Shown here in pieces: positions 2 to 52,460 of a DNA stretch of 64,000 nt. Source of the DNA: an uncultured Candidatus Saccharibacteria bacterium (GTDB taxonomy: Bacteria; Patescibacteriota; Minisyncoccia; JAHISW01; Tagabacteraceae); assembly GCA_964601305.1 (NCBI GenBank), contig CAZRMW010000004.1:434-64433 (forward strand), read 5' to 3'. Under the pieces are notes generated by a model. That model was given only the letters and a program-made list of their open reading frames with translations. It did not search any database and was not told the DNA's origin. The position numbers and the translations under genes are program-made. Position 1 is the stretch's first letter; the number at the start of each line of letters is the position of its first letter.

Positions 2-3000
2 TTTGCAAGAATTGCGTTTGGCGATGAAAGCGATGATGATGTTGGTTTAATTAAATATCAACATACAACAAATGACATGAGGTTCCAGACAAACGGTGCT
101 GAGCAAGTAATAATAGACTCCTCAGGCAACGTGGGGATAGGGACAACGACGCCGGACTTTTTATTGCAAGTAGCTCAAAATGCAAATGCATTAAAATTGT
201 CTAATTATGCTAATACAACGAACCCAATTGAGATGAGAGTTGTTAGACAAAGAACAAGCGGAGCAAACAATGGTTCAACCGACGATATCTTTACATTGTC
301 TGGGTACAAGAGAGCAAGTGGTACTGATGATGAAGTTGCTGCTATTAAATTTATCGGTACTGGTAGTTCAGCTGATGAAGCTAATATTACTTTTTCAACA
401 GCTAATACAGGAGGAGCTTTAACAGAACAAATGAGGATTCAAGATGACGGCAACGTGGGGATTGGGACGAATAGTCCAAACCAGAAGCTACATGTTAACG
501 TAGCTAATGCAGTTTCTGAGAATGTTAATTTCGCGGTGTATGGAAAAATTGCCGGGGCGGCTACATGGGATACAGCCGGTGGATCATTTGCAAATATTGG
601 TACAGGAACCGGAACAAATTATGGAGTTAGTGGAACTGCTTCAGGAGCGGGTACAACTAATATTGGTGGTCATTTTTTGGCTGCAGGAGCGACGAATAAC
701 TATGGTTTAATTGTAAGTTCTGGCAACGTCGGCATTGGTACCACAACACCAGAAACATTATTGAACATACGTGGTACGGATAATACAGAATTTTTGAGAT
801 TAACCGAATCGAATTTTAATTCAGATGCAGGATTAGGTATGGAAGTGCAAGGATCTCAAACAGGGATGAGCTTCTATGTAAATGGAACACAAAAAATGAT
901 GCTAGAAGCTGATGGAGGTGTATCTATAGGAACAAATTACCAAGGTGCGACTAATCCTCCAGCCAACGGTTTGATAGTGGAAGGCAACGTGGGGATAGGG
1001 ACTGTTAGTCCAGAATCAGCACTTACTGTTCAAGACGAAGACGCACAAACAAACGCAGTTCAAAATGTATTAAATATATGGAGGAGTACAACAGGAACTG
1101 CAGCAACAGGATTAGGTGCTGGGATAATGTTCCAACTAGAAGATGACGCAGATTCACTTAGAGGAGCAGGAACAATTGGTTCTAAATGGAAATCTGCAGC
1201 GAATGGTTCCCCTCAAGCTAATTTGTTTTTTGATGACCGTGCTGGAACTACTATTATGACATTAGAACATGGCGGCAACGTGGGGATTGGGACGACGAAC
1301 CCTAATTATAAACTGGAAGTAAATGGTACAGCCTCTACAACTCGTCTATTACTTCCTACAAATAATGACCCAACAACCCCAACAGTGTCTTTTGGGGATG
1401 GCGACACTGGTTTATATGAGGTTGGAGATGACACTATTTCTTGGGCTTTTGGTGGTGCAAGAATATGGACAATAACAAGTAGTAAATTCGCATCGGAAAT
1501 TACAGGTGGTGCTCTATTGGATAGAACTGCATCTAGCGCAACAAACCCAGCACATGCATTTTTTGCCGATGAAGACACTGGAATAGGTAGAGCAGCCGCA
1601 GATACTCTTTCACTTATTACTGCAGCTACGGAAAGAATGCGTATCGACTCCTCTGGCAATGTCGGGATTGGTGTTACAGACCCAGACGAAAAACTAGAAG
1701 TTGCAGGAGCATCTCATTTTGGTAATAGGATAGATATTTATAAGGGCGGAAATGCAACTAAGGTTGCAAATTTAGGTGCTAATGATGATATAGGTTTGTC
1801 TGGTCCAGCGTCAACTGATTTTGTAATTAAAACAACAGAAGCAACGTCAGGCTTTCATGTAAGCACTAGCGGTGATAGTACACCGAATTTTAGTATTATA
1901 GATAGTGGCAACGTCGGCATCGGTACGACGAGTCCAGATGCTGGGTTAGTTGTTAATAAGTCGGGGCTTAATGCTGGTATGATTATAGAAGGCACTTCGG
2001 CGTCGTTGGGTTTTAGGGATACAGAAGCTGGTCACGATGATTTTAGGATTTTAAATGATGCCGATAAATTAAAAATTGGAGTTGATACGGGTGATGTTTT
2101 TTCTAGCGTGTCAAATCTAGTTACAATTCAACAGGACGGCAACGTCGGCATCGGGACTACGGGTCCAGGATATCAATTAGAAGTTAATGTGGATGCAAAC
2201 AGTGAAGGAATAGGTTTAAAGACTGGAGGGACACTACTGGCAGCAATTGAACGTGAAGATACAGACGCAGGAAAACTAGTATTATATGATGGTGCAGCCG
2301 GCAAAATAAAGCTTAATGCTGATGCAGGTGAAGATAGTTGGATTAACAACGGTGGCAATGTCGGCATCGGCACGACGAGTCCGGCATATGTTTTCGAATC
2401 TTATACAAGCGGAAATAATTTTGCTCTAAGTGCAGATTGTGGTGGAGAAGGTGGTTGTGTTTCGATAAAGACCGAAGACGATGCCTCTGGAATTTCTTAT
2501 TATGTGCATGCTAGAGACAAAAATAATCTAGATACAGGATTTCTTTTAGCAGACGGAGGAACTTTTCAGCTGTCCGATGTATCTGACAGAAGATTAAAGA
2601 AAAATATTCGAGAGACTTCTATCAATGGGTTGGAGGTGATAAACAATATAGATGTAAGAGATTTTGAATGGATAGAAAATGATACTACGGTTGTGGGTGG
2701 TTTTATAGCGCAGGAATTACAGTTGGCATTTGCTCCAGCAGCATTTGGCGATCCAGATTCAGACCAAATGATGTCTATCTCCAGAGACAGGTTGGTGCCG
2801 GTTATAATTAAATCTATTCAAGAAATAAGCGACACAATACACATCTCTGAAGAAGGCTATGTAGGACTAGGAAACTTCGATGGACTCACAGCAAGCACAA
2901 CACCACAATACAAGATGCATGTACTAGGCGACGTAGCCGCAGAAAGCTTTGTAAACATCTCCACACAAGAATCTAAGAAAGACATAGAGTACTACACAGA

Positions 3001-3880
3001 AACTAAATACGAAAATGCCCTCACAAAGATAAAAGAAATGAAAGTAGCTAGCTATAACTATGTGAATGATGAATGTGGAATAACGAATGAAGAATGTGAG
3101 CCACAACGACTTGGCCTAATAGCAGAAGAATCCCCAGAAGAAGTACTATCTCTAGACGGCAAAGGAGTAGATCTCTACAAATTATCTTCTTTTATGCTCG
3201 CAGGTCTTAAAGAAACCATAAACAAAGTAGACGAACTAGAAGTGAGAGTAGATAGCCTGGAAGATTTAGTCTCAAACTATGGTAGTTCAACTACGATAGT
3301 TTTGGATGAGCCAGGGCTATTTGGCAGAATGGTAGTATGGCTTACAGACAAAATTCTTTATGTAAAAAGTTTAATTGTAAACGATAAAATTTGCGTAGGG
3401 GAAACTTGTGTAGACGAAAATACACTTAAGGCGCTACTAGAAAATGCAGGGCAAGTGGCTACGACGACACCGAACTCAATTAGCGAAGTTGAACTTCCTT
3501 CGGAAGTGTCAACTTCAACCCCTCAAGACACTACCCCACCAACAATAACCCTACAAGGAAACAACCCAGCTACAGTGAGTATTGGCGCAGAGTACCACGA
3601 CCTAGGAGTAACAATCACAGATAACATGGATAGCAACCTAGGCTACGAAGTATGGAGAAACGGAGAATACCTCGACAGAAACCTTACAGGAGTAAGTGTA
3701 GATACCCAGCCGCAACTTTCGGATGCAGGCGGGCAGGCCAGCACTACAATACATACCATAAGCTACGTAGCGCAAGACCAAGCTGGCAATGTAGCGACAA
3801 GTACGAGAACCATTATAGTATCTGTTGGAGGTCCGACCTCCCTCACAGAAGAAACTGCTACAACAACCCCAACAGAATAA
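2..3880 (+). CDS. Large secreted repeat protein, 5'-partial (open to the window edge). About nine ~100-aa repeats each carry a GNVGIGT(T/S)xP motif. The C-terminus has a peptidase S74 intramolecular-chaperone domain (SDRRLKKNI...GGFIAQEL) and an Ig-like DUF5011-type domain. Phage tail-fibre-like adhesin.
   Basis: ORF 77..3880 of 1267 aa. The frame stays open from nt 2 with no stop and no RBS before the ATG at 77, and Met77 sits in repeat register (MRF/MRI before SSGNVGIG). Matching DNA repeats GGCAACGT(G/C)GG(G/C)AT(A/T/C)GG occur at ~126, 451, 721, 975, 1273, 1656, 1905, 2137 and 2353. The motif SDRRLKKNI plus IAQE matches the endosialidase/tail-fibre chaperone signature. TITLQGNNPATVSIGAEYHDLGVTITD is DUF5011-like. 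Confidence 0.6.
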   Translation, partial: FARIAFGDESDDDVGLIKYQHTTNDMRFQTNGAEQVIIDSSGNVGIGTTTPDFLLQVAQNANALKLSNYANTTNPIEMRVVRQRTSGANNGSTDDIFTLSGYKRASGTDDEVAAIKFIGTGSSADEANITFSTANTGGALTEQMRIQDDGNVGIGTNSPNQKLHVNVANAVSENVNFAVYGKIAGAATWDTAGGSFANIGTGTGTNYGVSGTASGAGTTNIGGHFLAAGATNNYGLIVSSGNVGIGTTTPETLLNIRGTDNTEFLRLTESNFNSDAGLGMEVQGSQTGMSFYVNGTQKMMLEADGGVSIGTNYQGATNPPANGLIVEGNVGIGTVSPESALTVQDEDAQTNAVQNVLNIWRSTTGTAATGLGAGIMFQLEDDADSLRGAGTIGSKWKSAANGSPQANLFFDDRAGTTIMTLEHGGNVGIGTTNPNYKLEVNGTASTTRLLLPTNNDPTTPTVSFGDGDTGLYEVGDDTISWAFGGARIWTITSSKFASEITGGALLDRTASSATNPAHAFFADEDTGIGRAAADTLSLITAATERMRIDSSGNVGIGVTDPDEKLEVAGASHFGNRIDIYKGGNATKVANLGANDDIGLSGPASTDFVIKTTEATSGFHVSTSGDSTPNFSIIDSGNVGIGTTSPDAGLVVNKSGLNAGMIIEGTSASLGFRDTEAGHDDFRILNDADKLKIGVDTGDVFSSVSNLVTIQQDGNVGIGTTGPGYQLEVNVDANSEGIGLKTGGTLLAAIEREDTDAGKLVLYDGAAGKIKLNADAGEDSWINNGGNVGIGTTSPAYVFESYTSGNNFALSADCGGEGGCVSIKTEDDASGISYYVHARDKNNLDTGFLLADGGTFQLSDVSDRRLKKNIRETSINGLEVINNIDVRDFEWIENDTTVVGGFIAQELQLAFAPAAFGDPDSDQMMSISRDRLVPVIIKSIQEISDTIHISEEGYVGLGNFDGLTASTTPQYKMHVLGDVAAESFVNISTQESKKDIEYYTETKYENALTKIKEMKVASYNYVNDECGITNEECEPQRLGLIAEESPEEVLSLDGKGVDLYKLSSFMLAGLKETINKVDELEVRVDSLEDLVSNYGSSTTIVLDEPGLFGRMVVWLTDKILYVKSLIVNDKICVGETCVDENTLKALLENAGQVATTTPNSISEVELPSEVSTSTPQDTTPPTITLQGNNPATVSIGAEYHDLGVTITDNMDSNLGYEVWRNGEYLDRNLTGVSVDTQPQLSDAGGQASTTIHTISYVAQDQAGNVATSTRTIIVSVGGPTSLTEETATTTPTE

Positions 3881-5022: not shown

Positions 5023-5054
5023 TAACTAGTAACAAGTAACGGGTAACTAGTAAA
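5021..5054. repeat. Heptamer array, about five copies of AGTAAC(N). Left arm of a ~30-bp imperfect inverted repeat that encloses the four-helix-bundle gene.
   Basis: The sequence agtaactagtaacaagtaacgggtaactagtaaa lies directly between the rplY stop and the 5055 ATG. It is the reverse complement of the array at 5433-5467. Confidence 0.8.
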
Positions 5055-5426
5055 ATGGAAAATAGTATAAAAAATTTCTATGATTTAGAGGCCTGGAAAA
5101 AAGGACATGCTTTGGTTTTGAGTATCTATAAAATTACAGAAAGTTTTCCTAAAGAGGAAACATACGGTATAATTAGTCAACTAAGGAGAGCTTCTAGTTC
5201 TATTACTGCAAATATTGCTGAGGGGTTTGCTCGTTATCATTTTAGAGACAAAATTAGGTTTTATCACAATGCACGCGGCTCAGTTGCGGAGGTTCAAAAT
5301 TTTTTACTTTTAGCAAAGGATCTAAAATTTATTGGTTTAGATATATGTAAAAATTTAGGGAGAGAAGCAGTAGGTGTAAGTAAATTAATAAATGGCTTAA
5401 TAAAATCAATTGAGAAACAAATATAA
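5055..5426 (+). CDS. Four-helix-bundle protein (TIGR02436-type; the family typically encoded in 23S rRNA intervening sequences).
   Basis: 123 aa with YDLEAWKKGHAL...ITESFPKEE..YGIISQLRRASSSITANIAEGFAR...ARGSVAEVQ, a signature of this family. Confidence 0.75.
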   Translation: MENSIKNFYDLEAWKKGHALVLSIYKITESFPKEETYGIISQLRRASSSITANIAEGFARYHFRDKIRFYHNARGSVAEVQNFLLLAKDLKFIGLDICKNLGREAVGVSKLINGLIKSIEKQI

Positions 5427-6810
5427 AAAAAATTACTTGTTACTTGTTACTTGTTACTTGTTACTTGTCGTAGGCGGTGGTTTTGTTTTTGCTGAAGAAA
5501 TTAATGTGGAAAAAGCTCGCGCAGAGCTAGAAGCTGAATTGGCAGAGCTTGAAAAGCAGATGGAAGGATATAATGAAATAATAAAAGGAAAGCAAAGAGA
5601 GGCCACTTCTTTTGAAAGAGACATATCTATATTAGACGCTAAAATAAACAAAGCAAAAGCTGCTATACGATCCAGAAATCTTTCTATAGGCAAGTTAAAC
5701 TCTGGCATAGAAGACAAGAAAATATTTATAGGAGATTTAGATAAAAAAATAGAAGCTGAAAAAATTTCTTTAGCAGAGCTGATAAGAAGAGTAAATGAAA
5801 TGGACACTACAAGTGTAGTAGAAATTCTTTTGGGGTATGATTCTCTCTCGGAATTTTTTGAAGACTTCAGTTCTTTTGAGTCTATACAAAAAGAATTGCA
5901 AGTTTCTTTAGCGGAAATCAGAGGAACCCAAGAGTTAACAGAGAAGGAAAAAGAACAGCTCGAAGAAAAAAAACTAGGAGAGGTTGAATTAAAATCTATT
6001 CAAGAACTTGAAAAGAGAGGGCTTGAAGTAAAAGAAAACGAAAAACAAACACTACTTAAAATTACAAAAGGCGAGGAAGAAAAATACCAGAAAATTTTGG
6101 AAGAAAAAGAGAAATCTGCAGCTGAAATAAGAACAAGAATTTTCCGCTTGTTTGGTGGGGGAGAGTTAAGTTTTGCAGAGGCTGTAAAAATAGCCAAGAT
6201 TGCTGAAAAGGCTAGTGGTATCAGATCTGCTTTCATTTTGGCAGTGTTGGCACAAGAATCGGCACTAGATGGAGTTATTGGTAGAAATTTGGGGCAATGT
6301 TTTTATAATACACACGCAAGCAATTCTAGTGGCACTGTAATGAGTAAAAGCCAAAAGCCTTCGTTTTTGGCAATTATGAAAGAAATTGGTATGGATCCAA
6401 ACAACACTCCGGTTTCTTGCCCAATAGTTTCCGATGGGGCTCATGGTGGAGCGATGGGGCCCGCTCAGTTTATGCCAAGAACATGGTGGGATATAAATTC
6501 TAAAACTGGATACAAAAAAAGAATAGCTCAAATTACTGGCAACAATCCCCCTTCGCCATTTAATAATTCTGACGCTTTTGTGGGAACCTCGCTCTATTTA
6601 AAAGATGCTTACAATTCGAGTGCCTGCAAAAAATATGGCACAGAAAATAAACACATTTCTCCAGAACAATTGCTTAGAGAAAGGTGTGCGGCTGCGAGAT
6701 ACTATGCAGGTGGCGCTTGGTATAAATTTAGATGGGCTTATGGCGAGCCTGTTGTGGAGAGAGCTGCAGAGTTTCAGAAAGATATAAATTTAATAACCAA
6801 TACTCAATAA
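5410..6810 (+). CDS. Secreted coiled-coil protein with a C-terminal MltB-like (SLT_2) lytic murein transglycosylase domain.
   Basis: It has a signal peptide and ~230 aa of E/K-rich coiled coil. The C-terminus carries LAQESAL (catalytic Glu context), GGAMGPAQFMPRTW and NNSDAFVGTSLYLKDA, matching MltB-family motifs. Confidence 0.6.
   Translation: MRNKYKKNYLLLVTCYLLLVVGGGFVFAEEINVEKARAELEAELAELEKQMEGYNEIIKGKQREATSFERDISILDAKINKAKAAIRSRNLSIGKLNSGIEDKKIFIGDLDKKIEAEKISLAELIRRVNEMDTTSVVEILLGYDSLSEFFEDFSSFESIQKELQVSLAEIRGTQELTEKEKEQLEEKKLGEVELKSIQELEKRGLEVKENEKQTLLKITKGEEEKYQKILEEKEKSAAEIRTRIFRLFGGGELSFAEAVKIAKIAEKASGIRSAFILAVLAQESALDGVIGRNLGQCFYNTHASNSSGTVMSKSQKPSFLAIMKEIGMDPNNTPVSCPIVSDGAHGGAMGPAQFMPRTWWDINSKTGYKKRIAQITGNNPPSPFNNSDAFVGTSLYLKDAYNSSACKKYGTENKHISPEQLLRERCAAARYYAGGAWYKFRWAYGEPVVERAAEFQKDINLITNTQ
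5433..5467. repeat. Heptamer array (TTACTTG)x5, the reverse complement of the 5021-5054 array. Right arm of the inverted repeat around the four-helix-bundle gene. It also encodes part of the signal peptide of the next gene.
   Basis: The sequence is ttacttgttacttgttacttgttacttgttacttgt. Translated in the frame of ORF 5410 it gives LLLVTCYLLLV. Confidence 0.8.
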
Positions 6811-8085: not shown

Positions 8086-8895
8086 ATGGATACCAAATTA
8101 AAAGATAAAAAGCAAGCCATGCCTGCCGGAAGGCAGGAAGAAACATTAAAAGAAAGCGAAGAAATGTATCGCAGAGGTTTTCATTTTGGGTATTCTGGGG
8201 CTTCTAGCCATCCTAAGATGAAAAGCTATATTTTTGGAAATCGCAATAATACAGAGATTTTTAACTTAGAAAAATCTTTTTCGTGTCTTGAGGATGCAAA
8301 GTCTTTCGTCGAAGAACTGGGCTCTAGAAATGCAAAAATTCTATTTGTTGGCACAAAGCCAGGAATAAGGGGTCTTGTTGAAAAATTTGCAAATAGTATT
8401 GATATGCCATATGTGTCTGGAAGATGGCTTGGGGGTACATTAACAAACTTAAAAACTATTAGAAAAAGAGTAGGGTCTTTAAAAGATCTTAGGGAAGAAA
8501 AGGAAGCCACAAATTTTTCAAATTACATCAAAAAAGAGGCGGTAAGATTAGAAAAAAAGATGGCCAAACTTGAAAGATATTTTGGTGGTCTTCAGGATTT
8601 TAAAAATCTTCCAGCAGCGTTAGTTATAGTAGACCCAAAGGAGGAAAAATCTGCAGTAGCAGAAGCACAAAAAACAAATATACCAACTATATCTCTTTTG
8701 AATAGCGATTGTAATCCTGAAGGTTTGGATTATATAGTTCCTGGAAACGACAATACAAATTTAAGTGTTGAGTATTTTTTAGAAAAAATAGCGGCTGCAT
8801 ATGCAGATGGAGTGAAAAAACCTAAAAAAGAAGAAACCCTAGACGAACAAAGTTCGTCGGGTAAAGAAGAGGTTGTGGAAAAAACTGGAAATTAA
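8086..8895 (+). CDS. rpsB: Ribosomal protein uS2.
   Basis: FHFGYSG.SSHPKM...ILFVGTKP...GGTLTN motifs are present. Confidence 0.85.
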   Translation: MDTKLKDKKQAMPAGRQEETLKESEEMYRRGFHFGYSGASSHPKMKSYIFGNRNNTEIFNLEKSFSCLEDAKSFVEELGSRNAKILFVGTKPGIRGLVEKFANSIDMPYVSGRWLGGTLTNLKTIRKRVGSLKDLREEKEATNFSNYIKKEAVRLEKKMAKLERYFGGLQDFKNLPAALVIVDPKEEKSAVAEAQKTNIPTISLLNSDCNPEGLDYIVPGNDNTNLSVEYFLEKIAAAYADGVKKPKKEETLDEQSSSGKEEVVEKTGN

Positions 8896-10108: not shown

Positions 10109-10185
10109 GCCGATGTAGCTCAGTTGGTTAGAGCAACGGTTTTGTAAACCGTAGGTCGTCAGTTCGAATCTGACCATCGGCTCCA
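10109..10185 (+). tRNA. tRNA-Thr (anticodon UGU), with CCA encoded.
   Basis: The sequence is GCCGATG TA GCTC AGTTGGTTAGAGC A ACGGT TTTGTAA ACCGT AGGTC GTCAG TTCGAATC CTGAC CATCGGC T CCA. It folds as a cloverleaf with a 7-nt anticodon loop and TGT at positions 34-36. Confidence 0.85.
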
Positions 10186-10514: not shown

Positions 10515-11444
10515 ATGGCAAATAGACATTTATCAAGAAGTATAGCAATGCAGGTTCTTTTTGAATTGGATTTTAACGATAGTAAAAAGAATAAAGCCGA
10601 AGAAATCTTAAAAAGAAATCTCAAAGAATTTGCGCCAGGTCTGGACGACAGTAAATTTGTTGAAAAGATTGTGAAAGGTGTTTTGAAAGAGCAAAAAAAG
10701 ATAGACACAATAATCAAAAAAACAGCCCCTGAGTGGCCTTTGGAACAGATTGCGATTATAGACAGAAATGTTTTAAGGATAGGTCTTTATGAGCTCCTTT
10801 TTGGTAATCCGAAAGATGTGCCTAAAAAGGTAGCTATAAACGAGTCAATTGAACTCGCAAAAAGTTTTGGCGGGGAAACATCCGGCAAGTTTGTTAATGG
10901 TGTTTTAGGGACTGTTTATAGAGAATTGCCAGAGTCTGAGAAGGAAGACGATGGGCCAAACAAAGATCCAGAAAAAATAGATTGTGAAGAAAAAAAAGGT
11001 GGTGCCGTTGTGTATAGAAAAGAGAACTTGCCCGACAAGGCGGGAGACGATGTCTTTCTTGCGTTGGTGCACGATGTTTTTGGATACTGGACTCTTTCAA
11101 AAGGCGGGATTGAAGAAGGAGAAGATGAAAAAGAAGGAACAATTAGAGAAATAAAAGAAAAGATGGGGATAGATATAAAAATAAAAGAAAGTTTGGGGGA
11201 AAATGATTATGTAGCATCTCACCCTGAAAAAGGCAGAGTGAAAAAGAGCGTGTTTTATTTCTTGGCAGAGACAAAAGACAAAGGCCTAAAGCTTGGTGAA
11301 TCTGGTGGGCTCGACGATGTTCGCTGGTTTAAATTGGAAGATCTTGAAGGATTAAAAATATACGATGATTTAAAACCAATAATTTTAAAGGCAATTAAGA
11401 TTATAAAAACCCCGCCGAGCGGGGCAAGAAAAATAAATGGATAG
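10515..11444 (+). CDS. nusB: Fusion protein with an N-terminal NusB antitermination factor domain and a C-terminal NUDIX hydrolase domain.
   Basis: The NusB part reads RSIAMQVLFE...VLRIGLYELLFG...KKVAINESIELAKSFGGETSGKFVNGVLG, close to E. coli NusB. The Nudix box is GGIEEGEDEKEGTIREIKEKMGI. It is a single 309-aa ORF with no internal stop. Confidence 0.7.
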   Translation: MANRHLSRSIAMQVLFELDFNDSKKNKAEEILKRNLKEFAPGLDDSKFVEKIVKGVLKEQKKIDTIIKKTAPEWPLEQIAIIDRNVLRIGLYELLFGNPKDVPKKVAINESIELAKSFGGETSGKFVNGVLGTVYRELPESEKEDDGPNKDPEKIDCEEKKGGAVVYRKENLPDKAGDDVFLALVHDVFGYWTLSKGGIEEGEDEKEGTIREIKEKMGIDIKIKESLGENDYVASHPEKGRVKKSVFYFLAETKDKGLKLGESGGLDDVRWFKLEDLEGLKIYDDLKPIILKAIKIIKTPPSGARKING

Positions 11445-12132: not shown

Positions 12133-14304
12133 ATGCGACTTAAAAGTCTAAAAATTTCTGGTTTTAAATCTTTCAACAAGAGCACAACTCTTGGTTTTTC
12201 TAATTCTATATCTGCTATTGTTGGGCCAAATGGTTCTGGTAAATCAAACGTTGCAGAGTCTATTGCGTGGGTTTTGGGTGAGCAATCTGTAAAAAATTTG
12301 CGCGGGAAAAAGGGGGAAGATCTAATTTTTAACGGATCAGTTTCTTCTCCAAAAATGAATAAAGCATCGGTGTCTTTAATTTTTTCGAAAACACCCCGCC
12401 GGGCGGGGCAAGAAGTCTCAGAAGAGATAGTCGTTTCTCGTACTGTTTATAGAGACGGAGTTAATGAATATTTTATGAATAATACCAGAGCCAGGCTAAA
12501 AGATATTATAGAATTTTTAAACAAAGAGGGTTCTGGAGTTGTAAAACACCATATTATTAGACAAGGGGAGGCCGACCACATTTTAAATTCAAGCATAAAA
12601 GAAAGAAGAGATTTAATAGAAAATGCTCTCGGTCTTAAAATATATAAGATAAAAAAAGAAGAGGCTGAGAGAAAACTACTAAAAACAGAAGAAAATATAG
12701 AGCAAGTAAATTCTTTAAGAAAGGAAATACAGCCTCATTTGCGTTTTTTAAAAAAACAAGTTGCAAAAGCAAACGAATCTGTGGAGCTTAAAGAAGAGTT
12801 AAAAAATATTTGCTCAGAGTATTTTTCTTGGTCAGAAAACTGGATAAATCAAAGTTTGGAGAAAATTCAAGTGAATTTAACAGAGTTTAATGAAAAGATA
12901 GAAGGAAAAGAAAAAGAAATAAAAAGTTTTGAGGGTGAGGTAAAAAATTTTGAAAAAGAAAGAGAGAGATCAAGCACCATAAGAAACAAAATAAGTGATT
13001 TGGAAAGAGAAATAGGTAGGCACGAGGGGGCACTTTTTCAGATGAGAAAAACAGTGGAAAATAAAAAAGAGAAAACCCTAAACTCACAAAGTGAGTTGGG
13101 CAAGGAAGAGATAAAAATTAGATTTAGTTTTAGAGAAGTAGAAAATTTTGCAAAATACTTAGAAAAAGAAATAGAAAGGGCTTTTGGGGTGAGCGATGTA
13201 GAAAGTATTAAAAAAATACTAATATCGATCAAAAAAGAAGCAAGGTTTCTTTTTAAAAAACCTAACAGCAACCAGAAAGAAGAGCAAAAAGAAAACAATG
13301 AGACAAAGGAGTCTCTCAAGAAAATGGAAGCAAAATACAAAGAATTGCTAGTGGCTTTGGGTGACGTGAAAAAAGAAGAAGAAATCTTGCAAAAAGAAAG
13401 CAGAAAAGTATTAGACTCAGAGAGACAGCTTTATAAAATAAAAATGGAGGCAAGCGAACTAACAAACAAGAGAAATAATTTTAAAAATAAAAAAGAAGAG
13501 TTTTTGTCTAAAAAAGACTTTGTTTTTAAATACAAAAGTGAGTTGGAAAAATTCTTAAAAGAAAAAATTAAATATAATCAGACAAAGACAGATGTTGGTA
13601 ATTTTTCAGAAGAAACTTTAGAGAGGAAGAAAATAAAAATAGAAAGATTAAGAATAAAGCTAGAAGAAAGCGGTGGAGTGGGAGAAGAAATGATAAAAGA
13701 ATATGAAGAAATTAGTGGGAGAGACAATTTTTTATTAAAGGAAACTTCTGATTTAGGAGAATCATCTAAGTCTTTAAGGGTGCTAATAAAACAACTCGAA
13801 GAAAGATTAGACACTGATTTTAAAAAAGGAATTTCAAAAATTAATATAGAATTTCAAAAGTTTTTTGAAGCAATGTTTAATGGGGGAAAAGCGGAGTTGA
13901 GAATTGTAAAAGGAAAAGCAAAAATTGTTGACGAAGATAGTTTTCAAGAAGAGGGCGTAGACATAAAAGTAAGTTTGCCGAGAAAGAAAATAAATTCTCT
14001 AGGCATGCTTTCTGGTGGAGAAAGGGCGCTTACCTCTATTGCTCTTCTTTTTGCTTTGTCTCAAGTTAATCCCCCGCCGTTTTTAATTTTAGATGAAACA
14101 GACGCGGCGCTAGACGAATCTAATTCTAGAAAATATGCACAGATGCTTAAGAAGTTGAGTAGTAAAACCCAATTGATACTAATTACACACAATAGAGAAA
14201 CTATGAACATCGCCGGTATTTTATACGGAGTTACCATGGGAGGCGATGGTATATCAAAATTGCTTTCTATAAAACTAGAAGACGCCGAAGAGATGGTAGT
14301 TTAA
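12133..14304 (+). CDS. smc: SMC-family chromosome segregation ATPase, condensed form (723 aa).
   Basis: N-terminal Walker A GPNGSGKSN. Long coiled coil. C-terminal signature LSGGERALTSIALLFAL and Walker B LILDETDAALD. It follows rnc as in Firmicutes. Confidence 0.7.
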   Translation: MRLKSLKISGFKSFNKSTTLGFSNSISAIVGPNGSGKSNVAESIAWVLGEQSVKNLRGKKGEDLIFNGSVSSPKMNKASVSLIFSKTPRRAGQEVSEEIVVSRTVYRDGVNEYFMNNTRARLKDIIEFLNKEGSGVVKHHIIRQGEADHILNSSIKERRDLIENALGLKIYKIKKEEAERKLLKTEENIEQVNSLRKEIQPHLRFLKKQVAKANESVELKEELKNICSEYFSWSENWINQSLEKIQVNLTEFNEKIEGKEKEIKSFEGEVKNFEKERERSSTIRNKISDLEREIGRHEGALFQMRKTVENKKEKTLNSQSELGKEEIKIRFSFREVENFAKYLEKEIERAFGVSDVESIKKILISIKKEARFLFKKPNSNQKEEQKENNETKESLKKMEAKYKELLVALGDVKKEEEILQKESRKVLDSERQLYKIKMEASELTNKRNNFKNKKEEFLSKKDFVFKYKSELEKFLKEKIKYNQTKTDVGNFSEETLERKKIKIERLRIKLEESGGVGEEMIKEYEEISGRDNFLLKETSDLGESSKSLRVLIKQLEERLDTDFKKGISKINIEFQKFFEAMFNGGKAELRIVKGKAKIVDEDSFQEEGVDIKVSLPRKKINSLGMLSGGERALTSIALLFALSQVNPPPFLILDETDAALDESNSRKYAQMLKKLSSKTQLILITHNRETMNIAGILYGVTMGGDGISKLLSIKLEDAEEMVV

Positions 14305-14344: not shown

Positions 14345-14746
14345 ATGTTAAAGATAAGATTTACAAGAATTGGTAGAAAGCACGACCCTACTTTTAGGAT
14401 CGTTTTAACCGATTCTAGAAAAGCTCCAAGAAGTGGAGCATATATAGAAAAGCTTGGTTTTTATAATCCTACCAAAAAAGGAGATTTTAGTGTGGATGGA
14501 GAAAGGGTAAAGCATTGGATTTCTCAAGGGGCACAAGTTTCTCCTTCAGTTTTTAATCTTTTAGTTTCAGAAAAAATAGTAGAGGGTAAAAAAGTGGATG
14601 TAAGTGCGAAGAGCAAGAAGAAAGTAGCTGAAGAGCCTAAGGAGCAATCAGTAGAATCAACTGAAAACAAAAAAGACGATTCAACCTCAGACGATAAAGC
14701 AGAAGAAGAGGTTGAGGAAAAACCAGAAGAGACAAAAGAAAAATAG
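14345..14746 (+). CDS. rpsP: Ribosomal protein bS16 with a C-terminal acidic/lysine extension.
   Basis: MLKIRFTRIGRKHDPTFRIVLTDSRKAPRSG..EKLGFYNP. Confidence 0.85.
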   Translation: MLKIRFTRIGRKHDPTFRIVLTDSRKAPRSGAYIEKLGFYNPTKKGDFSVDGERVKHWISQGAQVSPSVFNLLVSEKIVEGKKVDVSAKSKKKVAEEPKEQSVESTENKKDDSTSDDKAEEEVEEKPEETKEK

Positions 14747-14753
14747 AGGATTG

Positions 14754-14809
14754 ATCCCTCACCTTTGATTGAATTTTTATGAATAAAGAACTATGCAAAG
14801 GTGAGGGAT
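14754..14809 (+). promoter_or_regulatory. Perfect 14-bp stem hairpin between rpsP and the next gene. No U-tract follows it, and its 3' edge abuts the -35 element.
   Basis: ATCCCTCACCTTTG, a 28-nt loop, then CAAAGGTGAGGGAT. Confidence 0.5.
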
Positions 14810-14836
14810 TGACAAAGAGTAGTTTTTGTGTATAAT
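14809..14836 (+). promoter_or_regulatory. Consensus sigma70-type promoter (TTGACA-16-TATAAT) upstream of the KH-domain gene.
   Basis: ttgaca at 14809-14814, a 16-nt spacer, tataat at 14831-14836. Confidence 0.6.
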
Positions 14837-14879
14837 AAAAAGATAATTTAATTCAGGTCGATTTAATAAGTTAGAATTA

Positions 14880-15227
14880 TTGGTTAAACAGAATTCAAAC
14901 ATGGCAGAAAAATTCAAAGATGCAGAATTTCTTGAGTATGTCGTGAAGGCTTTGGTAGACAGTCCAGACGCCGTAGAGGTAGATCGTCAAGTAGACGAAA
15001 TGGGTGTTTTACTAAAATTGAAAATTGACCCAGCTGATATGGGTAAAATCATTGGCCGAAGCGGTAATACTGCTAGAGCTATCCGAAATCTTTTACGTGT
15101 AGTTGGCCTTAAAAACCAAGCTCGCGTAAACCTAAAGATTGAGGAACCAGAAGGTGGTAGGAGAGCTCCTGCTCCTCGTTCTGAAGAGCCTAGTGTAGAC
15201 GATGTGGTTGATGATTTGAAGTTATAA
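14880..15227 (+). CDS. khpA: KH-domain RNA-binding protein (KhpA/YlqC-like, UPF0109). The start is probably at the MAEKF ATG at 14901.
   Basis: GKIIGRSGNTARAIRNLLRVVG is the KH GxxG-type motif. The rpsP-KH-trmD neighbourhood is conserved. Confidence 0.6.
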   Translation: MVKQNSNMAEKFKDAEFLEYVVKALVDSPDAVEVDRQVDEMGVLLKLKIDPADMGKIIGRSGNTARAIRNLLRVVGLKNQARVNLKIEEPEGGRRAPAPRSEEPSVDDVVDDLKL

Positions 15228-15252
15228 ACACTTAACTTTTTAAATCTAAGAA

Positions 15253-15286
15253 AGCCGTTCCACTTGTGGGGCGGTTTTCTGTTTTT
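15253..15286 (+). terminator. Intrinsic terminator after the KH gene.
   Basis: CCGTTCCAC-TTG-TGGGGCGG, a stem with G-U wobbles, followed by TTTTCTGTTTTT. Confidence 0.5.
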
Positions 15287-15320
15287 ACTCATTTTGGTTT
15301 TTGAGAAAGAGTAAGTTAAC

Positions 15321-15428
15321 ACAAAACCAAAACTAATTTTTTACTTTCCCTAAATTATGATAATTTAGGGAAGTGTTCGTTTTAGACTCACAAGCACGTA
15401 AAAAATTGTTTTGATTTTGTGTTTTGTA
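15321..15428. repeat. ~100-nt noncoding repeat, copy 1 of 2 (the other is at 51596-51706). It contains the CCCTAAATTAT-GA-TAATTTAGGG hairpin.
   Basis: acaaaaccaaaac...ttttttactttccctaaattatgataatttagggaagtg.tcg.tttag.ctcacaagcacgtaaaaaattgttttg.ttttgtgtttt is nearly identical to the second copy. Confidence 0.8.
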
Positions 15429-15492
15429 ATTTCCTCACAAAAATAAAAGCCTTATCCTTGCTAGTTGAAGTTGTAAAAGATAAAATTAAGAT

Positions 15493-18593: not shown

Positions 18594-18708
18594 ACTCAAA
18601 AAACATTCCAACATTCTGCAGAATATCAGAATGTTTTGTGTTGCTTGTGTGGTGGTGTGTTTTATGATAGTTTGAGTAAAGAACAAAAAACAAGGAGGGT
18701 TATTTTCA

Positions 18709-19100
18709 TGGAGACACATCTTACAGATATTGGGAAAGAAAAAATTGAAAAAGAACTTGAAAGACTTAAGAAATTGCGTGAAGAGAAAATTCAAGAATTA
18801 AGAAAACTAGAAGATAGTAATCTTGGTGCATGGAATACATATGGAAGTGAATTGTGTGCAGGAAGCATGTCTAACGCAGAAGAAAAAAAAGAAAAAGAAA
18901 TTAAGAGAATAAAAGAAACCGTGGTTTTACTCAAAGATGTTCTTTCTGGGGAACTTGATATATCAGCAAAAAACGAATCTGCATTGCGGTTTTCTATGCG
19001 GGAAATACATTTGAAAATAGAAGGTCTAAAAACTAAGAAAAGTGTAATGGAAGCAGAACATACTAGAGTAATCCAAGCAAGAGGTATTATAATGAGATAA
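18709..19100 (+). CDS. Hypothetical coiled-coil protein, paralog of 19375..19722. The track ORF starts at 18636, but an AGGAGG RBS precedes the ATG at 18709.
   Basis: The shared block VVLLKDVLSGELDISAKNESALRFSM in this gene aligns with ICLLKTVLFNDLDISKEKENDFRETA in the paralog. Confidence 0.45.
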
Positions 19101-19374
19101 AATAAATGGACAGTTTTGAATTTAAAGGCGGGAATACCCTCGCCTTTTTTGTTTGGGTTATAGCACCGAGTCTGTGTTTTTTCTATTAGTTTTTCTATTG
19201 TCCCTAAAATTCACGATCCCGCCAGATTTATCCACCTTCGCCAGAGGCGGGCAGGCGTGAAAAAAAGGGAAGGATAGGGGTAAGAGGACAGAAAAAGAGT
19301 TGTACGCAGGGTGCTTTTTGTGGTAGCTTAGACAAAGAATGTAAAAACAACAAGAAAAAAAAGGGGGTTTATTA

Positions 19375-19722
19375 ATGACGTCTTTTGAAAATATAAAGCG
19401 TATGGCTCATTTGAGACAAGAGAAAGAAGATGACTTAAAAAAGAACAAAGAAAAGATAATATGCAGAAAAATAGAAGAGCTTGAAGACGAACTAAAAGAT
19501 AAATCAACAGATGAATGGGAAATCGATAAAATTGAAGAGTCTATTTGTTTACTCAAAACAGTGCTTTTTAATGACCTAGATATATCCAAAGAAAAGGAAA
19601 ATGATTTTAGAGAAACTGCCTTTAAATTGGATGGAAAGATAAGAAAATTACAAATAGATAAATTTTCTGCTGAAAGTTCACGTGAGTTTGTTTCGAAAAT
19701 AAGAAGCATAGTTCTTGGTTAA
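19375..19722 (+). CDS. Hypothetical coiled-coil protein, paralog of 18709..19100.
   Basis: RBS AGGGGG, then ATG. See the shared block above. Confidence 0.45.
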   Translation: MTSFENIKRMAHLRQEKEDDLKKNKEKIICRKIEELEDELKDKSTDEWEIDKIEESICLLKTVLFNDLDISKEKENDFRETAFKLDGKIRKLQIDKFSAESSREFVSKIRSIVLG

Positions 19723-19947
19723 CATAAAAACACCCTGACATACTTCCGCCAGAGGCGGACAGGTGAGAATGTTGGGGTTTTTATTTTACTCCCTAAGCAA
19801 TGCTATCACCCCAAATGTGTGGTGTTTTTCTATTCTTTCTAAAATTAACGATCGTGAGAAATGGGTAGGATAGAATAATTCCTTGATTTATACTGTATTT
19901 CTGATACTATGAAATTATGAGTTTTATAAATTCTAAATTTTATAAAA

Positions 19948-20229
19948 ATGACAAGAATACTAGAAAAAAATAAAATAATAGCCACAAGAGTAAAAAGAAA
20001 TTATCAAATAACTATTCCGCAAAATTTGCGTAAAAAATTTGATGTGGATATTGGTGATTATGTAGAGGTAGATATAAAGCCTGTTAAACTTATTTCTGCT
20101 GATCAAGAGTATTTTCATACAAAAGAATGGCAAAAAGGCGAAGCAGGAGCTGATAAAGATATTGCAGAAGGAAGAGTTGCTGGTCCGTTTAATAGTGTTA
20201 AAGATTTAGTTAAGGAATTGAAAAATTAA
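19948..20229 (+). CDS. AbrB/MazE/SpoVT-family type II antitoxin.
   Basis: ATRVKRNYQITIPQNLRKKFDVDIGDYVEVD is swapped-hairpin barrel-like. Confidence 0.6.
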   Translation: MTRILEKNKIIATRVKRNYQITIPQNLRKKFDVDIGDYVEVDIKPVKLISADQEYFHTKEWQKGEAGADKDIAEGRVAGPFNSVKDLVKELKN

Positions 20230-20235
20230 AACTGT

Positions 20236-20493
20236 ATGAAATTTTATCGTACAGAAAAATTCAAAAAAGACTATAAAAAATTGCCTACTAAAACTAAAAA
20301 ATTAGCTGAAAAACAATTGGTGTTTTTATTGTCCAATCCTAAGCACCCCTCTTTAAATATTAAAAAAATGCAGGACAAAAGGAACATCTGGGAGATTAGA
20401 ATAACAGATTCATATAGGCTGACTTTTCAAATATCAAAAGAAGGCTACTTATTGCGTAAAATAGGAACACATAAAATTTTAAAAAATCCATAA
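20236..20493 (+). CDS. RelE/ParE (YoeB-like) type II toxin.
   Basis: FKKDYKKL...NP.HPSLNIKKMQ...WEIRITDSYRLTFQI...LLRKIGTHKIL. Confidence 0.6.
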   Translation: MKFYRTEKFKKDYKKLPTKTKKLAEKQLVFLLSNPKHPSLNIKKMQDKRNIWEIRITDSYRLTFQISKEGYLLRKIGTHKILKNP

Positions 20494-21035: not shown

Positions 21036-21554
21036 ATGGAAAACTTAAAACCTTTGTTTGAAAGTTTTTTAAATTTAGATATTAAAGAGAGTATTAATTT
21101 GGAAGAAGTTTCCAACATAGACAAACTTATATCCTATTGGAAAAACACTTCTTCAGATTCAAAGCCAGAAGAACTCATCGAAGCTAGAATGGTTGTGGTT
21201 TTGGAAGAAGTTTCCAACATAGACAAACTTATATCCTACTGGGAAAACACTTCTTCAGATTCAAAACCAAAAGAACTCATCGAAGCTAGAATGGTTGTGG
21301 TTTTGGAAGAACAGCTTCCAAACATTTCCGACATAGACAAACTTATATCCTACTGGGAAAACACTTCTTCGGACTCAAAGCCAAGAAAACTCATCGAAGC
21401 TAGAATGGTTGTGGTTTTGGAAGAAGTTTCCGAAAAGAATATTGAAGATATTCCCGACTGGTTTATTGGTTTATTAAAAAACGAGGTTAAAATACCCAAT
21501 TTTTTGAAAGAAAAATTTAAAGAGAAGGCAAAGAGTATTTATCGAAATTTTTAA
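21036..21554 (+). CDS. Hypothetical protein with three near-identical tandem ~35-38-aa repeats (EEVSNIDKLISYWENTSSDSKP.ELIEARMVVVLEE).
   Basis: Strong RBS aaaggagggg. The DNA tandem repeats span ~21101-21425 and are almost identical at nucleotide level. Confidence 0.55.
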   Translation: MENLKPLFESFLNLDIKESINLEEVSNIDKLISYWKNTSSDSKPEELIEARMVVVLEEVSNIDKLISYWENTSSDSKPKELIEARMVVVLEEQLPNISDIDKLISYWENTSSDSKPRKLIEARMVVVLEEVSEKNIEDIPDWFIGLLKNEVKIPNFLKEKFKEKAKSIYRNF

Positions 21555-30799: not shown

Positions 30800-30957
30800 T
30801 TTTGCACCTCGTATCCCGCCAGAGGCGGATAAATTTCAATGTTTACCCGCCTTTGGCGGGTTCTTTCTTCAGTATTCCACAATTTCACCAAAAATCAACC
30901 TTCTAGCAGGCGAGCAAGTCTTTTGATTTTTGGGGGGTAAAAAGTTAGTATAGATGT

Positions 30958-32701: not shown

Positions 32702-32971
32702 ATGAAAACACAAATTAATTTAAAAATAGACCCGGGTGTAAAAAAAATGGCTCAAAAAAAAGCTAAAGATATTGGTCTTTCTTTAAGTTCGGTTGTAAAT
32801 GCTTCTCTTAAACAATTTGCTAATACGGGAGAGTTGCATTTGTATTCTAGTTACAAAATGACTCCGAAGTTAGAAAAGATAGTTGAAAAGGCAAGAGAAG
32901 AATACAAAAAGGGAAAAAGTTTTGGTCCTTTTTCTACCGTCAGTGAATTGATGGATAGTCTAAATAGTTAG
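32702..32971 (+). CDS. dinJ: RelB/DinJ-family antitoxin.
   Basis: INLKIDPGVKKMAQKKAKDIGLSLSSVVNASLKQF. Confidence 0.65.
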   Translation: MKTQINLKIDPGVKKMAQKKAKDIGLSLSSVVNASLKQFANTGELHLYSSYKMTPKLEKIVEKAREEYKKGKSFGPFSTVSELMDSLNS

Positions 32972-32978
32972 AGTTTTT

Positions 32979-33236
32979 ATGAGACTAAGATATTCGAGTA
33001 ATTTTAAAAGGCAATACAAAAAACTACCTAAAAATATTAAAAAGAAGACTGGCGAAAGAATAAAAATATTTTTAGAGAATCCAAGAAATTCATTGCTTAG
33101 AGTTCACAGATTGTTGGGGAAATTACAAAATTCTTGGAGTATGAATATAACCGGCAATATTCGAATTGTCTTTGATTATGATAAAAACGGTCTTTTCTTA
33201 ATCGCAATTGGAACACATAGTGAGTTGTATAAATGA
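32979..33236 (+). CDS. yafQ: YafQ/RelE-family toxin (mRNA interferase).
   Basis: FKRQYKKLPKNIKKK...ENPRNSLLRVHRLLGKL...IRIVFDYDKNGLFLIAIGTHSELY. Confidence 0.65.
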   Translation: MRLRYSSNFKRQYKKLPKNIKKKTGERIKIFLENPRNSLLRVHRLLGKLQNSWSMNITGNIRIVFDYDKNGLFLIAIGTHSELYK

Positions 33237-33782: not shown

Positions 33783-33910
33783 AAAACCTACTCTAAGACA
33801 CGCTATCGCTCCAGTTAGGGTAGGTTTTGGAATTTTGACCTTGGTTTTAAAGTTTAATTTTTGAAAAGGTACAAAGTCTAGCGGTCGCGGAGGTTTGTAT
33901 CTTTTGTTTT
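33783..33910. repeat. Composite repeat R1, copy 1. A 12-bp-stem hairpin AAACCTAC.CTA...TAGGGTAGGTTT with a GCTATCGC loop core is followed by the AAAAGGTACAAAGTCTAGCGGTCGCGGAGGTTTGTA module.
   Basis: It matches 42601-42700 (both modules) and 58974-59019 (hairpin only). Confidence 0.8.
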
Positions 33911-34005
33911 TATAAACTATAGACAAGAAATATAATGTGTGTTAGTTTTGTCTGCAGAAACATAAAATAATTAACCAGCGCTACACAAAGAAAAGGAGGA
34001 AGAAA

Positions 34006-42214: not shown

Positions 42215-42601
42215 ATGAAAGAAATAAGACAAAGAAGCCGTTTTAGAAAGATGTTTTTTTCTTTGCCGGTTCTTTTGTTCTTTTTAGCTGTTTGTGTGTT
42301 TTTTTCTGTTTCCTTGCTAAAGATTTATAAAAAAAGTAGAAACGCAGTTTTAAGCAACGAATCAGTAATAGAAGAAATAGGGAAAATAGAAAAAAGAGAG
42401 AAGGATTTGTCGGCAAGCATTAATCAATTGAGGGGCGGGTTTGGTGCAGAAAAAGAATTACGCGAAAAATTTAATGTAAAAAAACCAGGAGAGGAGTTTG
42501 TGGTAATAATAGATAATAGTAAAAAGGGTGAAGAGGACACAGACAAAGAAAAGAAGGATCAGGGATTTTTCAAAAAAGTTTTAGAATTACTAAAGTTTTA
42601 A
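42215..42601 (+). CDS. Septum formation initiator (FtsB/DivIC-like) protein.
   Basis: N-terminal TM, a coiled coil, then LRGGFGAEKELREKFNVKKPGEEFVVI. Confidence 0.5.
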   Translation: MKEIRQRSRFRKMFFSLPVLLFFLAVCVFFSVSLLKIYKKSRNAVLSNESVIEEIGKIEKREKDLSASINQLRGGFGAEKELREKFNVKKPGEEFVVIIDNSKKGEEDTDKEKKDQGFFKKVLELLKF

Positions 42602-45281: not shown

Positions 45282-49354
<4,073 letters not shown>

Positions 49355-52430: not shown

Positions 52431-52460
52431 GCTGGTTGAATTCCTAAACTTTTCGTCGAT

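Follow-up and report, generated by a model that had tools for sequence, protein, structure and literature searches.

Genomic setting and enrichment of the palindromes

The window analyzed here is a 64-kb stretch of contig CAZRMW010000004.1, from an uncultured bacterium of the Patescibacteria, and all window counts given below refer to this one stretch. It has a GC content of ~35% and a GC skew that is positive almost throughout, and it carries core genes of Patescibacteria type (rpoB/C, smc, rnc, pheST, gyrB, dnaE, dnaG, lepA and ribosomal protein genes) together with RNA genes (RNase P RNA, one tRNA at 10109-10185 and the start of the 16S rRNA). PheT homologs with source names bore Patescibacteria, Pacebacteria or Parcubacteria labels, and the nearest PheT match among GTDB representative genomes was only 56% identical to the PheT of the window. 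Scattered through genes and spacers of this sequence are short GC-rich palindromes, which a preliminary description had sorted into two families, A and B, with one spacer block read as an insertion resembling miniature inverted-repeat transposable elements (MITEs).

Both motifs were clearly non-random, as that description had proposed. When up to three mismatches were allowed, family A (CCCGCCGAGCGGGGCAAG) matched the window four times against 0.01 expected by chance, at 11411-11428 (+), 12395-12412 (+, one mismatch), 57933-57950 (+) and 45918-45935 (-). The family B 13-mer (CCGCCAGAGGCGG), with up to two mismatches, matched six times against 0.14 expected, at 19238 (one mismatch), 19746, 30816, 30847 (-), 45318 and, doubtfully, 31214. 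The copies listed in the preliminary description were all present, with coordinates 1-2 nt off in places, and the antisense copy at 45918-45935 in pheT had been missed. Searches based on structure gave the same picture: perfect 5-bp all-GC hairpins with loops of 3-5 nt yielded 15 matches, some of them overlapping, at ~10 sites (0.34 in Markov simulations), hairpins followed by the short tag described below yielded 7 (0.1 simulated), and GC-rich hairpins with stems of at least 6 bp yielded 18 (0-3 simulated). The motif GGCGGRCARG occurred six times (three in full copies, one in a variant within proS and two as solo halves), for a chance expectation of ~0.05 estimated from composition.

Altogether, the 64 kb contained ~9 A/B copies and ~5 related hairpins. 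The density of A/B copies was ~1 per 7 kb, and 7/9 of them lay on the + strand, a bias that is confounded with gene orientation and not significant. No match to Rfam at gathering thresholds was obtained at any element in the window, and an origin from a tRNA fragment was rejected, the sole tRNA of the window being that at 10109-10185. A further candidate, CGCGCAGAGCGCG at 25237 in rpoC, was rejected as an element because it encodes the conserved RAEREGLF stretch.

A common hairpin-plus-tag design

Aligned in register, A and B shared one 18-nt layout, in which positions 1-5 pair with positions 9-13 in a 5-bp all-GC stem closed by a 3-nt loop and followed by a 5-nt 3' tag, RCARG, that abuts the foot of the stem. 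In A the parts are CCCGC, CGA, GCGGG and GCAAG, and in B they are CCGCC, AGA, GGCGG and ACAAG. The loop was usually AGA or CGA, and the tag was seen as GCAAG, ACAAG, GCAGG and ACAGG. Stem pairs 3-11 and 4-10 swapped GC<->CG together in 7/15 distinct copies, collected from the window and from other loci. Across these 15 copies 97% of stem cells were paired, versus 43-53% when the 3' partner was slid by 1-3 columns, a count that is partly circular given that the hairpin scans used for collecting copies favour paired stems. A and B, whose consensus sequences were themselves detected as plain repeats, are co-varying versions of one hairpin-plus-tag design, and not the two separate families of the preliminary description.

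As DNA, the 18-mers folded at -5 kcal/mol. Copies were translated in six different frames (A+0, A+1, A+2, A-0, B+0 and B+2), so that the conserved unit is the DNA and not a peptide. The GC-rich hairpins were followed by RCARG and then usually by A-rich sequence instead of the T-run of an intrinsic terminator, and terminators with T-runs were separate features (e.g. 58853-58880 and 60649-60678).

Elements within coding sequences

Four of the nine A/B copies lay in coding sequence, as did the variants at 46920 and 52536. The elements and related hairpins found within genes were the following.

45318-45335, + strand: pheT site 1, family B copy CCGCCAGAGGCGGACAAG, an exact 6-codon insertion after codon 12
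45918-45935, - strand: pheT site 2, antisense family A copy with tag CAGG, an exact 6-codon insertion PAPLGG
46920-46940, + strand: pheT variant, degenerate A-like sequence CCCGCCTTGATGTCGGGCAGA of 21 nt with a weak hairpin, a window-specific 7-codon insertion
45531-45562, + strand: pheT palindrome, 32 nt, near-perfect, GAGGTCGGACCTCC TAAG GGAGGTACGACCTC, overlapping a 7-codon insertion
52536-52579, - strand: proS variant with expanded loop, CCCGCCTCG...CGAGGCGGG followed by CAAG, 9-10-bp stem
11411-11428, + strand: C-terminal tail of the NusB-Nudix gene, exact family A copy CCCGCCGAGCGGGGCAAG, codons PPSGAR, 8 nt 5' of the rnc ATG (11437)
12395-12412, + strand: smc copy, family A with one mismatch (loop CGG), encoding (T)PRRAGQ
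63083-63116, + strand: longer element CGCCCGCCATCGCAAGACTCAGGCGTTGCGGGCG (family C) within the amidase open reading frame (ORF) 62147-63394
8122-8137, + strand: hairpin CCTGCCGGAAGGCAGG (family D), translated as PAGRQE within the N-terminal extension of rpsB

Comparison with orthologs bore out, for PheT and the NusB-Nudix tail, the claim that these are discrete insertions at the DNA level, also within coding sequences. At pheT site 1 the element reads CCG CCA GAG GCG GAC AAG, and the resulting hexapeptide PPEADK, correctly predicted beforehand like the TPRRAGQ of SMC, was unique to the window protein among 18 PheT sequences, all 17 aligned homologs, including the closest (P0002, ~70% identical), having a 6-residue gap at this point. 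At pheT site 2 the reverse complement of A is read as CCT GCC CCG CTC GGC GGG, and PAPLGG was an exact 6-residue insertion with respect both to the PheT structures in the PDB and to 15/17 close homologs. The copy in the NusB-Nudix tail was missing from the relative L184, and once the 18 nt are subtracted from the window sequence the tail is colinear and the rnc start is kept. The insertion in proS was window-specific and amounted to 13 codons (39 nt, 52540-52578), the whole element (52536-52579) folding at -15.9 kcal/mol (z = -3.5).

The smc copy did not behave as a clean 18-nt insertion: in comparison with 120 homologs, the loop was longer by just 1-2 residues (33 aa in the window, a mode of 32 aa in 106/121 aligned sequences and 31 aa in the closest relative), which suggests either that native sequence was replaced by the element or that an insertion was offset by a deletion. 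The 32-nt palindrome in pheT folded at -15.3 kcal/mol (z = -6.9) and looks like a fold-back copy of adjoining sequence, not a member of the 18-mer family, so that a second, local route to hairpins would also exist. As for the longer forms, the element at 63083-63116 was ~90% identical over ~35 nt to an insertion in the arginyl-tRNA synthetase (ArgRS) P0272 of the unrelated contig L186. The family D design CCTGCC-N4-GGCAGG was also found twice as insertions in the ArgRS of L185, and in RpsB itself the homology to S2 begins only at residue 25.

An unbiased ortholog survey of nine gene sets against L176, L178, L180, L182 and L008 retrieved four window-specific GC-rich palindromic insertions, three in pheT (including 46920-46940) and one in proS. 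PAPLGG, the fourth pheT copy, escaped the survey filter because it is common to L178 and L180. In sum, in-frame palindromic insertions were found in PheT, ProS and the NusB-Nudix tail of the window and in the ArgRS of L126. Non-palindromic internal insertions were also recorded in the survey, in lepA (3-codon, 4-codon and 160-aa), in gyrB (8-codon) and in a TPR gene (3-codon).

The largest of these, an in-frame insertion of 160 residues in lepA (39987-40466, residues 75-234), splits the GTPase domain and matched the PD-(D/E)XK_3 nuclease family (PF13366, E = 5e-32). The LepA proteins of L176 (602 aa) and L178 (598 aa) have no such insertion, which may represent a mobile nuclease domain.

Elements in spacers

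The copies, and the sequences associated with them, in the spacers were as follows.

19190-19218, + strand: conserved spacer block TTTTTCTATTnTnnCTAAAATTnACGATC, 5' of the insertion point, with a paralogous copy at 19825-19853
19219-19256, + strand: composite of 38 nt in one of two paralogous spacers, 5' half CCGCCAGA (19219-19226), 12 nt, then full B copy TCGCCAGAGGCGGGCAGG (19238-19255)
19746-19763, + strand: family B copy in the loop of a terminator-like hairpin (19732-19778), 3' of ORF 19375-19722
30816-30859, no strand assigned: inverted pair of B type, CCGCCAGAGGCGGATAAA ... TTTACCCGCCTTTGGCGG, upstream of dnaG, CARG tag absent
57933-57950, + strand: intergenic family A copy with a tag that continues into the ORF 57962 ribosome-binding site (GCAAGGAGTAAACAAAATG)
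59177-59186, + strand: solo 3' half with tag, GGCGGGCAAG, located 12 nt upstream of the ATG at which an M17 peptidase gene probably starts

The two spacers sharing TTTTTCTATTnTnnCTAAAATTnACGATC, which matched only twice in the window (0 expected), are homologous, as first noted. They follow the paralogous genes 18708-19100 and 19375-19722, whose proteins were 35% identical over 68 aa. The insertion described in the first of them was also real, the paralogous spacer reading ACGATC|GTGA without the block, and its size and position are corrected here to 38 nt (19219-19256) between ACGATC and GTGA, in place of the ~34 nt given before. This composite, in which CGCCAGA is present twice, is better described as one element with extra loop sequence, or else as a full copy preceded by an incomplete one, than as the tandem pair formerly proposed. 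Extra sequence within an element's own loop was found both here and in proS.

The outer stem of the 19732-19778 structure encloses its element and folded at -12.2 kcal/mol (z = -4.0), while the inverted pair at 30816-30859 folded as a single long hairpin at -17.8 kcal/mol (z = -6.1). The solo half at 59177-59186, to which a second one at 3728-3737 was similar, may be a decayed copy. The placement upstream of start codons that had been called frequent held for two window copies (8 and 11 nt, before rnc and ORF 57962) and for a copy in the relative L178 (L178:8796), and was no general rule.

Near the solo half at 59177, the region of the M17 peptidase gene was bracketed by the near-identical T-run terminator hairpins at 58853-58880 and 60649-60678, and also by two 52-nt spacer repeats that were 94% identical (59040-59091 and 60826-60877). 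An intergenic repeat family unrelated to A and B was also observed in the spacers, consisting of a 46-nt hairpin repeat, AAAACCTAC...GTAGGTTTT, present three times (33783-33828, 42601-42646 and 58974-59019), and of a 48-nt repeat adjoining it twice (33864-33911 and 42649-42696). Two toxin-antitoxin pairs were recorded, one at 19948-20493 (MazE-type antitoxin and ParE-like toxin) and another at 32702-33236 (RelB/DUF6364 antitoxin and YafQ-type toxin), the latter also in the syntenic region of L176.

Copies in other genomes

Exact 18-mer scans of public contigs returned mostly GC-rich chance matches (median 68% GC), and only AT-rich loci were used. Among the matches listed, the exact A 18-mer occurred at at least ~9 AT-rich metagenome loci with AT-rich flanks, which are not due to chance given an estimated rate of ~1.5e-12 per position in DNA of 40% GC. 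The loci with copies of A, B or a symmetric form included the following.

L126: two A copies within ArgRS (PPSGAS and NPLGGAS), in frame
L115: A copy within a phosphoglycerate mutase gene (PAERGR), in frame
L104: A copy antisense in a NifU-like gene
L058 and L141: symmetric 23-nt form CYTGC-CCCGC-TCG-GCGGG-GCARG
L157 and L159: 'viral' contigs, both AT-rich, with the exact B 18-mer, the L159 copy lying in the loop of a larger hairpin

In L178 two copies were found in 22 kb, one of them (L178:8796) directly 5' of a ribosome-binding site. The contigs L183 and L187, of 90% DNA identity, differed by a 21-nt hairpin-plus-GCAAG element, a difference that appears to be a recent gain and in which the boundaries of the element are ambiguous because a CAAGC repeat overlaps the tag. 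Contigs of the window strain itself, from ENA, JGI and Logan assemblies, consisted of near-identical DNA without a difference at any element, and therefore carried no information on presence or absence.

Several of the same-strain contigs broke or had N-gaps at 19213 and 19755-19765, as listed below. Breaks and scaffolding exactly at B copies fit a sequence that is repeated genome-wide, or a polymorphism in the population.

L007: window 19213-19765
L006: ends at 19755
L005: N-gap at 19764

Recurrence at the same codon boundaries

At pheT site 2, three lineages were filled at the identical codon boundary with copies 1-2 substitutions apart, and the flanks showed ordinary synonymous divergence with no recombination tract. 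The copies were these.

Window: CCTGCCCCGCTCGGCGGG
L178: CTTGCCCCGCTTGGCGGG
L180: CTTGCTCCGCTCGGCGGG

In a neighbour-joining tree of PheT (no bootstrap), each carrier came out with a non-carrier as its sister, in the pairs P0001/P0002, P0003/P0005 and P0008/P0009 (carriers named first). At site 1, a decayed B copy was present in the distant homolog P0105 (L182), displaced by one base and read in a different frame (LARGGQ), and it must have arisen independently. Moreover, the 21-nt element of P0015 (L183) lay two codons from the same site and was missing from its close sister P0016 (L187).

A similar pattern was observed in ArgRS. At a first site, an exact 6-residue insertion was present in 9/40 homologs, with a decay series comprising NPLGGA, APLGGV, TSLGGA, TPPGGA, ASSFGI and AETAGI, and a second site was filled independently in P0241 (18 nt) and P0272 (an element of ~40 nt). 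Such recurrence would follow if certain targets are preferred, if sites that tolerate an insertion are very few, or if the elements spread laterally. The stronger claim, that a near-identical 18-nt element has repeatedly and independently entered the same codon boundaries (PheT sites 1 and 2, ArgRS sites A and B) across divergent Patescibacteria, is put forward tentatively, the odds being rather against it.

Comparison with known repeat systems

Among the systems compared, repetitive extragenic palindromic (REP) sequences resembled the elements in that a short, GC-rich stem-loop bears a conserved tag of a few nucleotides on one side of its foot, and in the possibility of several sequence families per genome. 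REPs also occur as many dispersed copies per genome and as inverted doublets (REPINs). The arrangement at 30816-30859 recalls such a doublet, with both units here devoid of the tag, and the 23-nt forms of L058 and L141 are symmetric. The 18-nt unit falls within the definition of a palindromic stem-loop of ~14-40 nt common to many copies, near the lower limit of REP sizes. REPs are mostly extragenic and 3' of genes, whereas about half of the window copies were intragenic, and the host here is an AT-rich reduced Patescibacteria genome in which no REP-associated tyrosine transposase (RAYT) was seen flanked by these elements. REPs within genes, including those for aminoacyl-tRNA synthetases and for replication and repair, as well as CGTC-type REPs without a linked transposase, have nevertheless been documented (PMC3733652). 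Patescibacteria are not mentioned in a 2025 survey of REPs, and literature searches returned nothing on such elements in this group.

The elements share with MITEs a non-autonomous, dispersed character and the possibility of in-frame insertion. MITEs, however, measure 70-300 bp and have terminal inverted repeats of 15-30 bp and target-site duplications; the present unit is 18 nt long, has no terminal inverted repeats of MITE type and no consistent target-site duplication, and the initial MITE-like label is therefore abandoned. Membership in the IS200/IS605 mini-elements of PATE type, which have two different subterminal hairpins and insert 3' of a fixed tetra- or pentanucleotide, was likewise rejected, the elements having a single hairpin and no consensus in their 5' flanks.

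The SDR repeats of heterocyst-forming cyanobacteria, as treated by Elhai et al. in Genome Research in 2008, are reportedly hairpin-forming repeats of ~21-27 nt which are seen as insertions, conserved genes being among their sites, and which nest in one another. They differ in sequence and in host phylum, and the unit described here is smaller, with a tag that is defined. In the mitochondria of yeast and other fungi, mobile GC clusters form palindromic islands of high GC content within very AT-rich genomes, inserted in spacers and occasionally in coding sequence. They differ in being organellar, ~30-50 bp long and unrelated in sequence. Rickettsia palindromic elements (RPEs) of the RPE-1 type measure ~100-150 bp, far above 18 nt. 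The short RPE-4/6 carry a CGTC tag, so that neither the length nor the tag of the present elements matches those of RPEs. The likeness to RPEs lies in palindromic repeats that are in frame at tolerant sites of genes that stay functional, in a small AT-rich genome (cited in PMC3733652).

A reading of the G-rich tag as a Chi-like or KOPS-like motif was rejected, since it leaves the hairpin and the indels unexplained. The 7-mer GGGCAGG occurred nine times on the + strand and twice on the - strand of the window, partly within the tags of elements, and such a skewed oligomer is reminiscent of chromosome-orienting motifs.

Origin and spread of the elements

Based on the above results, the elements probably constitute a REP-like family of miniature, non-autonomous palindromic elements that spreads at the DNA level in a Patescibacteria lineage with the help of a putative mobilising enzyme. 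The elements, more numerous than first described, are best placed within the REP-like class of miniature palindromic mobile DNA. Copies 18-43 nt long with a single hairpin (the longer variants measuring 21-43 nt) would be made and inserted by a trans-acting enzyme of the HUH/Y1 class, similar to RAYT, which would recognise the folded single-stranded hairpin and, by analogy with RAYT, cut or join at the RCARG tag. The RAYT of E. coli reportedly recognises REP DNA in its single-stranded form and cuts at the GTAG tag (PMC3733652). The activity would probably take place on the lagging-strand template, and the preferred targets would be single-stranded hairpin loops, which is how elements could have come to lie in the terminator at 19732-19778, in the larger hairpin of L159 and in the copies with expanded loops (19219-19256 and 52536-52579). 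A copy landing in a tolerant surface loop would survive because 18 nt amount to six codons and encode small peptides rich in Pro, Gly, Ala and Arg in any frame. The surviving copies were found in essential genes (pheT, proS, smc and the nusB-nudix tail) and in spacers (abutting ribosome-binding sites or in terminator loops).

As to the enzyme, for which the preliminary description had suggested REP-associated tyrosine transposases, no Y1/HUH or other transposase gene was present among the window ORFs scanned (64 kb). In L185, a relative of the organism of L126, a 220-aa Y1_Tnp gene was found between ileS and a uracil-DNA glycosylase gene (14764-15426). It matched the NCBIfam model REP_Tyr_transpos (REP-associated tyrosine transposase) with E = 1.5e-11, at 44 bits versus a curated cut-off of 80. 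Its flanks (14690-14740 and 15430-15470) contained inverted repeats of ~30 nt with a CCAAGGG-NNN-CCCTTGG hairpin. No further copy of this hairpin was found in the 21.7 kb of L185, and no relatives of the L185 transposase were found in viral contigs. An enzyme class similar to RAYT exists in the clade, and a link between it and A/B is what we infer.

Several observations weigh against a REP-like mobile family, beginning with the absence of a transposase gene from the window ORFs scanned, the low score of the L185 protein and the fact that the hairpin flanking its gene differs from A/B and is absent from the window. In place of GTAG or CGTC, the tags of the known REP superfamilies and both absent here, the elements carry RCARG (CYTGY when read on the opposite strand). 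No direct repeats flanked the window copies, no target consensus and no consistent target duplication emerged at the copies examined in the window and at other loci, and the sole direct repeat, the 5-nt CAAGC of L183, is just as compatible with microhomology. The closest relative, L176, had no copy in 17.7 kb and L008 had no tagged copy in 20.9 kb. To these should be added the smc copy, with its 1-2 extra residues and no clean 18-nt insertion, as well as the partly circular covariation count and the confounded strand bias mentioned above.

It is unlikely that the motif is instead favoured by a machinery of DNA uptake or recombination common to co-resident Patescibacteria, and spread by transformation and homologous recombination and not by transposition. 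Such a drive would agree with the occurrence of the same 18-mers in divergent lineages (the window strain and P0008 co-occurring in the metagenome ERZ23499057), with the filling of the same orthologous sites in non-sister lineages, with a smc copy that replaces native sequence without an 18-nt addition, and with the inverted pair in a spacer. However, known uptake sequences occur at ~1 per kb and without strand bias, and the elements could not be classed with DNA uptake sequences of DUS/USS type, their density being only ~1 per 7 kb with 7/9 copies on one strand (+), and most copies being clean indels and not accumulated substitutions. Neither is the ordinary synonymous divergence around the common PheT site, with no recombination tract, in line with this explanation, nor would compensatory maintenance of a hairpin be expected of an uptake signal in double-stranded DNA.

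We give a similarly low probability to the possibility that the elements are selected structural signals, that is, functional RNA or DNA hairpins that selection maintains or creates where they stand and whose mobility is secondary. Such hairpins could stabilise mRNA at its 5' or 3' end, mark processing sites, cap terminators or modify ribosome-binding sites. In favour of such roles are copies 8-12 nt upstream of start codons whose tag passes into the Shine-Dalgarno sequence (at 11411, 57933 and L178:8796, the half-copy at 59177 being similar), together with the copy capping a terminator-like hairpin, and transcription of REPs and an influence of theirs on the fate of mRNA are known (PMC3733652, PMC12306157). 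Yet identical 18-mers were found in sense and antisense, in every frame and deep within unrelated coding regions of different organisms, copies were indels between close relatives, and there was no match to an Rfam family; selection in place cannot yield the same 18 nt at unrelated sites. The later reuse of some copies for RNA or DNA functions is plausible under a REP-like mobile family.

A local mutational origin, with hairpins arising afresh by template switching or fold-back copying (quasi-palindrome mutation), is less probable still. The palindrome at 45531-45562 is a case in its favour, its 32 nt exceeding the 21-nt insertion that it overlaps, so that part of it must be native sequence copied in inverted form. 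This process, however, cannot give the same 18-mer at ~9 unrelated window sites and in other genomes, and the arms of A/B copies do not derive from their own flanks. Finally, although most exact matches of the public scans lay in GC-rich DNA, where chance matches are expected, an explanation by chance, composition or assembly artefact is already refuted by the 4-15 observed window matches for chance expectations of 0.01-0.3, by the same sequence in independent ENA, JGI and Logan assemblies of the strain, and by the intact reading frames.

Other repeats and RNA-like features of the window

Tandem heptamers (TTACTTG)n were present at 5038-5054 (-) and 5432-5470 (+), inverted around ORF 5055-5426, a '23S rRNA intervening sequence protein' (PF05635), and again beside the 3' end of proS (52445-52507, +). 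A different heptamer, ATTACGG, was found three times in frame in the pheT of relatives (L183:1185-1215). These heptamers look like a second kind of mini-repeat.

A 103-nt repeat occurred at 15323-15425 and 51601-51703 with 91% identity. Its second copy adjoins a tRNA-like 3' end, GGTTCAAATCCCGCC...CCA (51549-51576), which gave only a weak tmRNA match (11.5 bits) and no call by ARAGORN, and which is followed by a GC-rich, structured-looking region (51860-52330) without Rfam match. A divergent tmRNA, or an RNA gene of some other kind, may be present here. Within ORF 21036-21554, a 107-nt unit was repeated three times in tandem (21109-21431, 91-93% identical), with substitutions and small indels in L001 and with contigs L002 and L003 ending there. 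A 48-nt unit of the GGCAACGTGGGGAT type was present in eight dispersed copies at 125-2401 within ORF 77-3880, whose 1267-aa product has Peptidase_S74 and surface Ig-like domains and resembles a tail fibre or surface repeat protein.

Implications for Patescibacteria

Patescibacteria have very small genomes in which few mobile elements are recognised. If 18-nt elements are widespread in the group and add hexapeptides to core proteins such as aminoacyl-tRNA synthetases, they would shape its genes in a way not reported before, and would account for part of the odd insertions in proteins of the candidate phyla radiation (CPR). The elements would also serve as markers for strain typing and be a likely cause of assembly breaks. 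The RCARG tag and its minimal hairpin make a compact substrate with which a new enzyme acting on single-strand DNA, of HUH type or other, could be found and tested. If the recurrent, independent entry into the same codon boundaries were true, it would imply that the smallest mobile unit so far described in bacteria is integrated by a machinery directed to sites or structures or, alternatively, that it spreads among co-resident cells through DNA uptake and gene conversion; by either route, the element would be a main source of protein-length changes in these reduced genomes.

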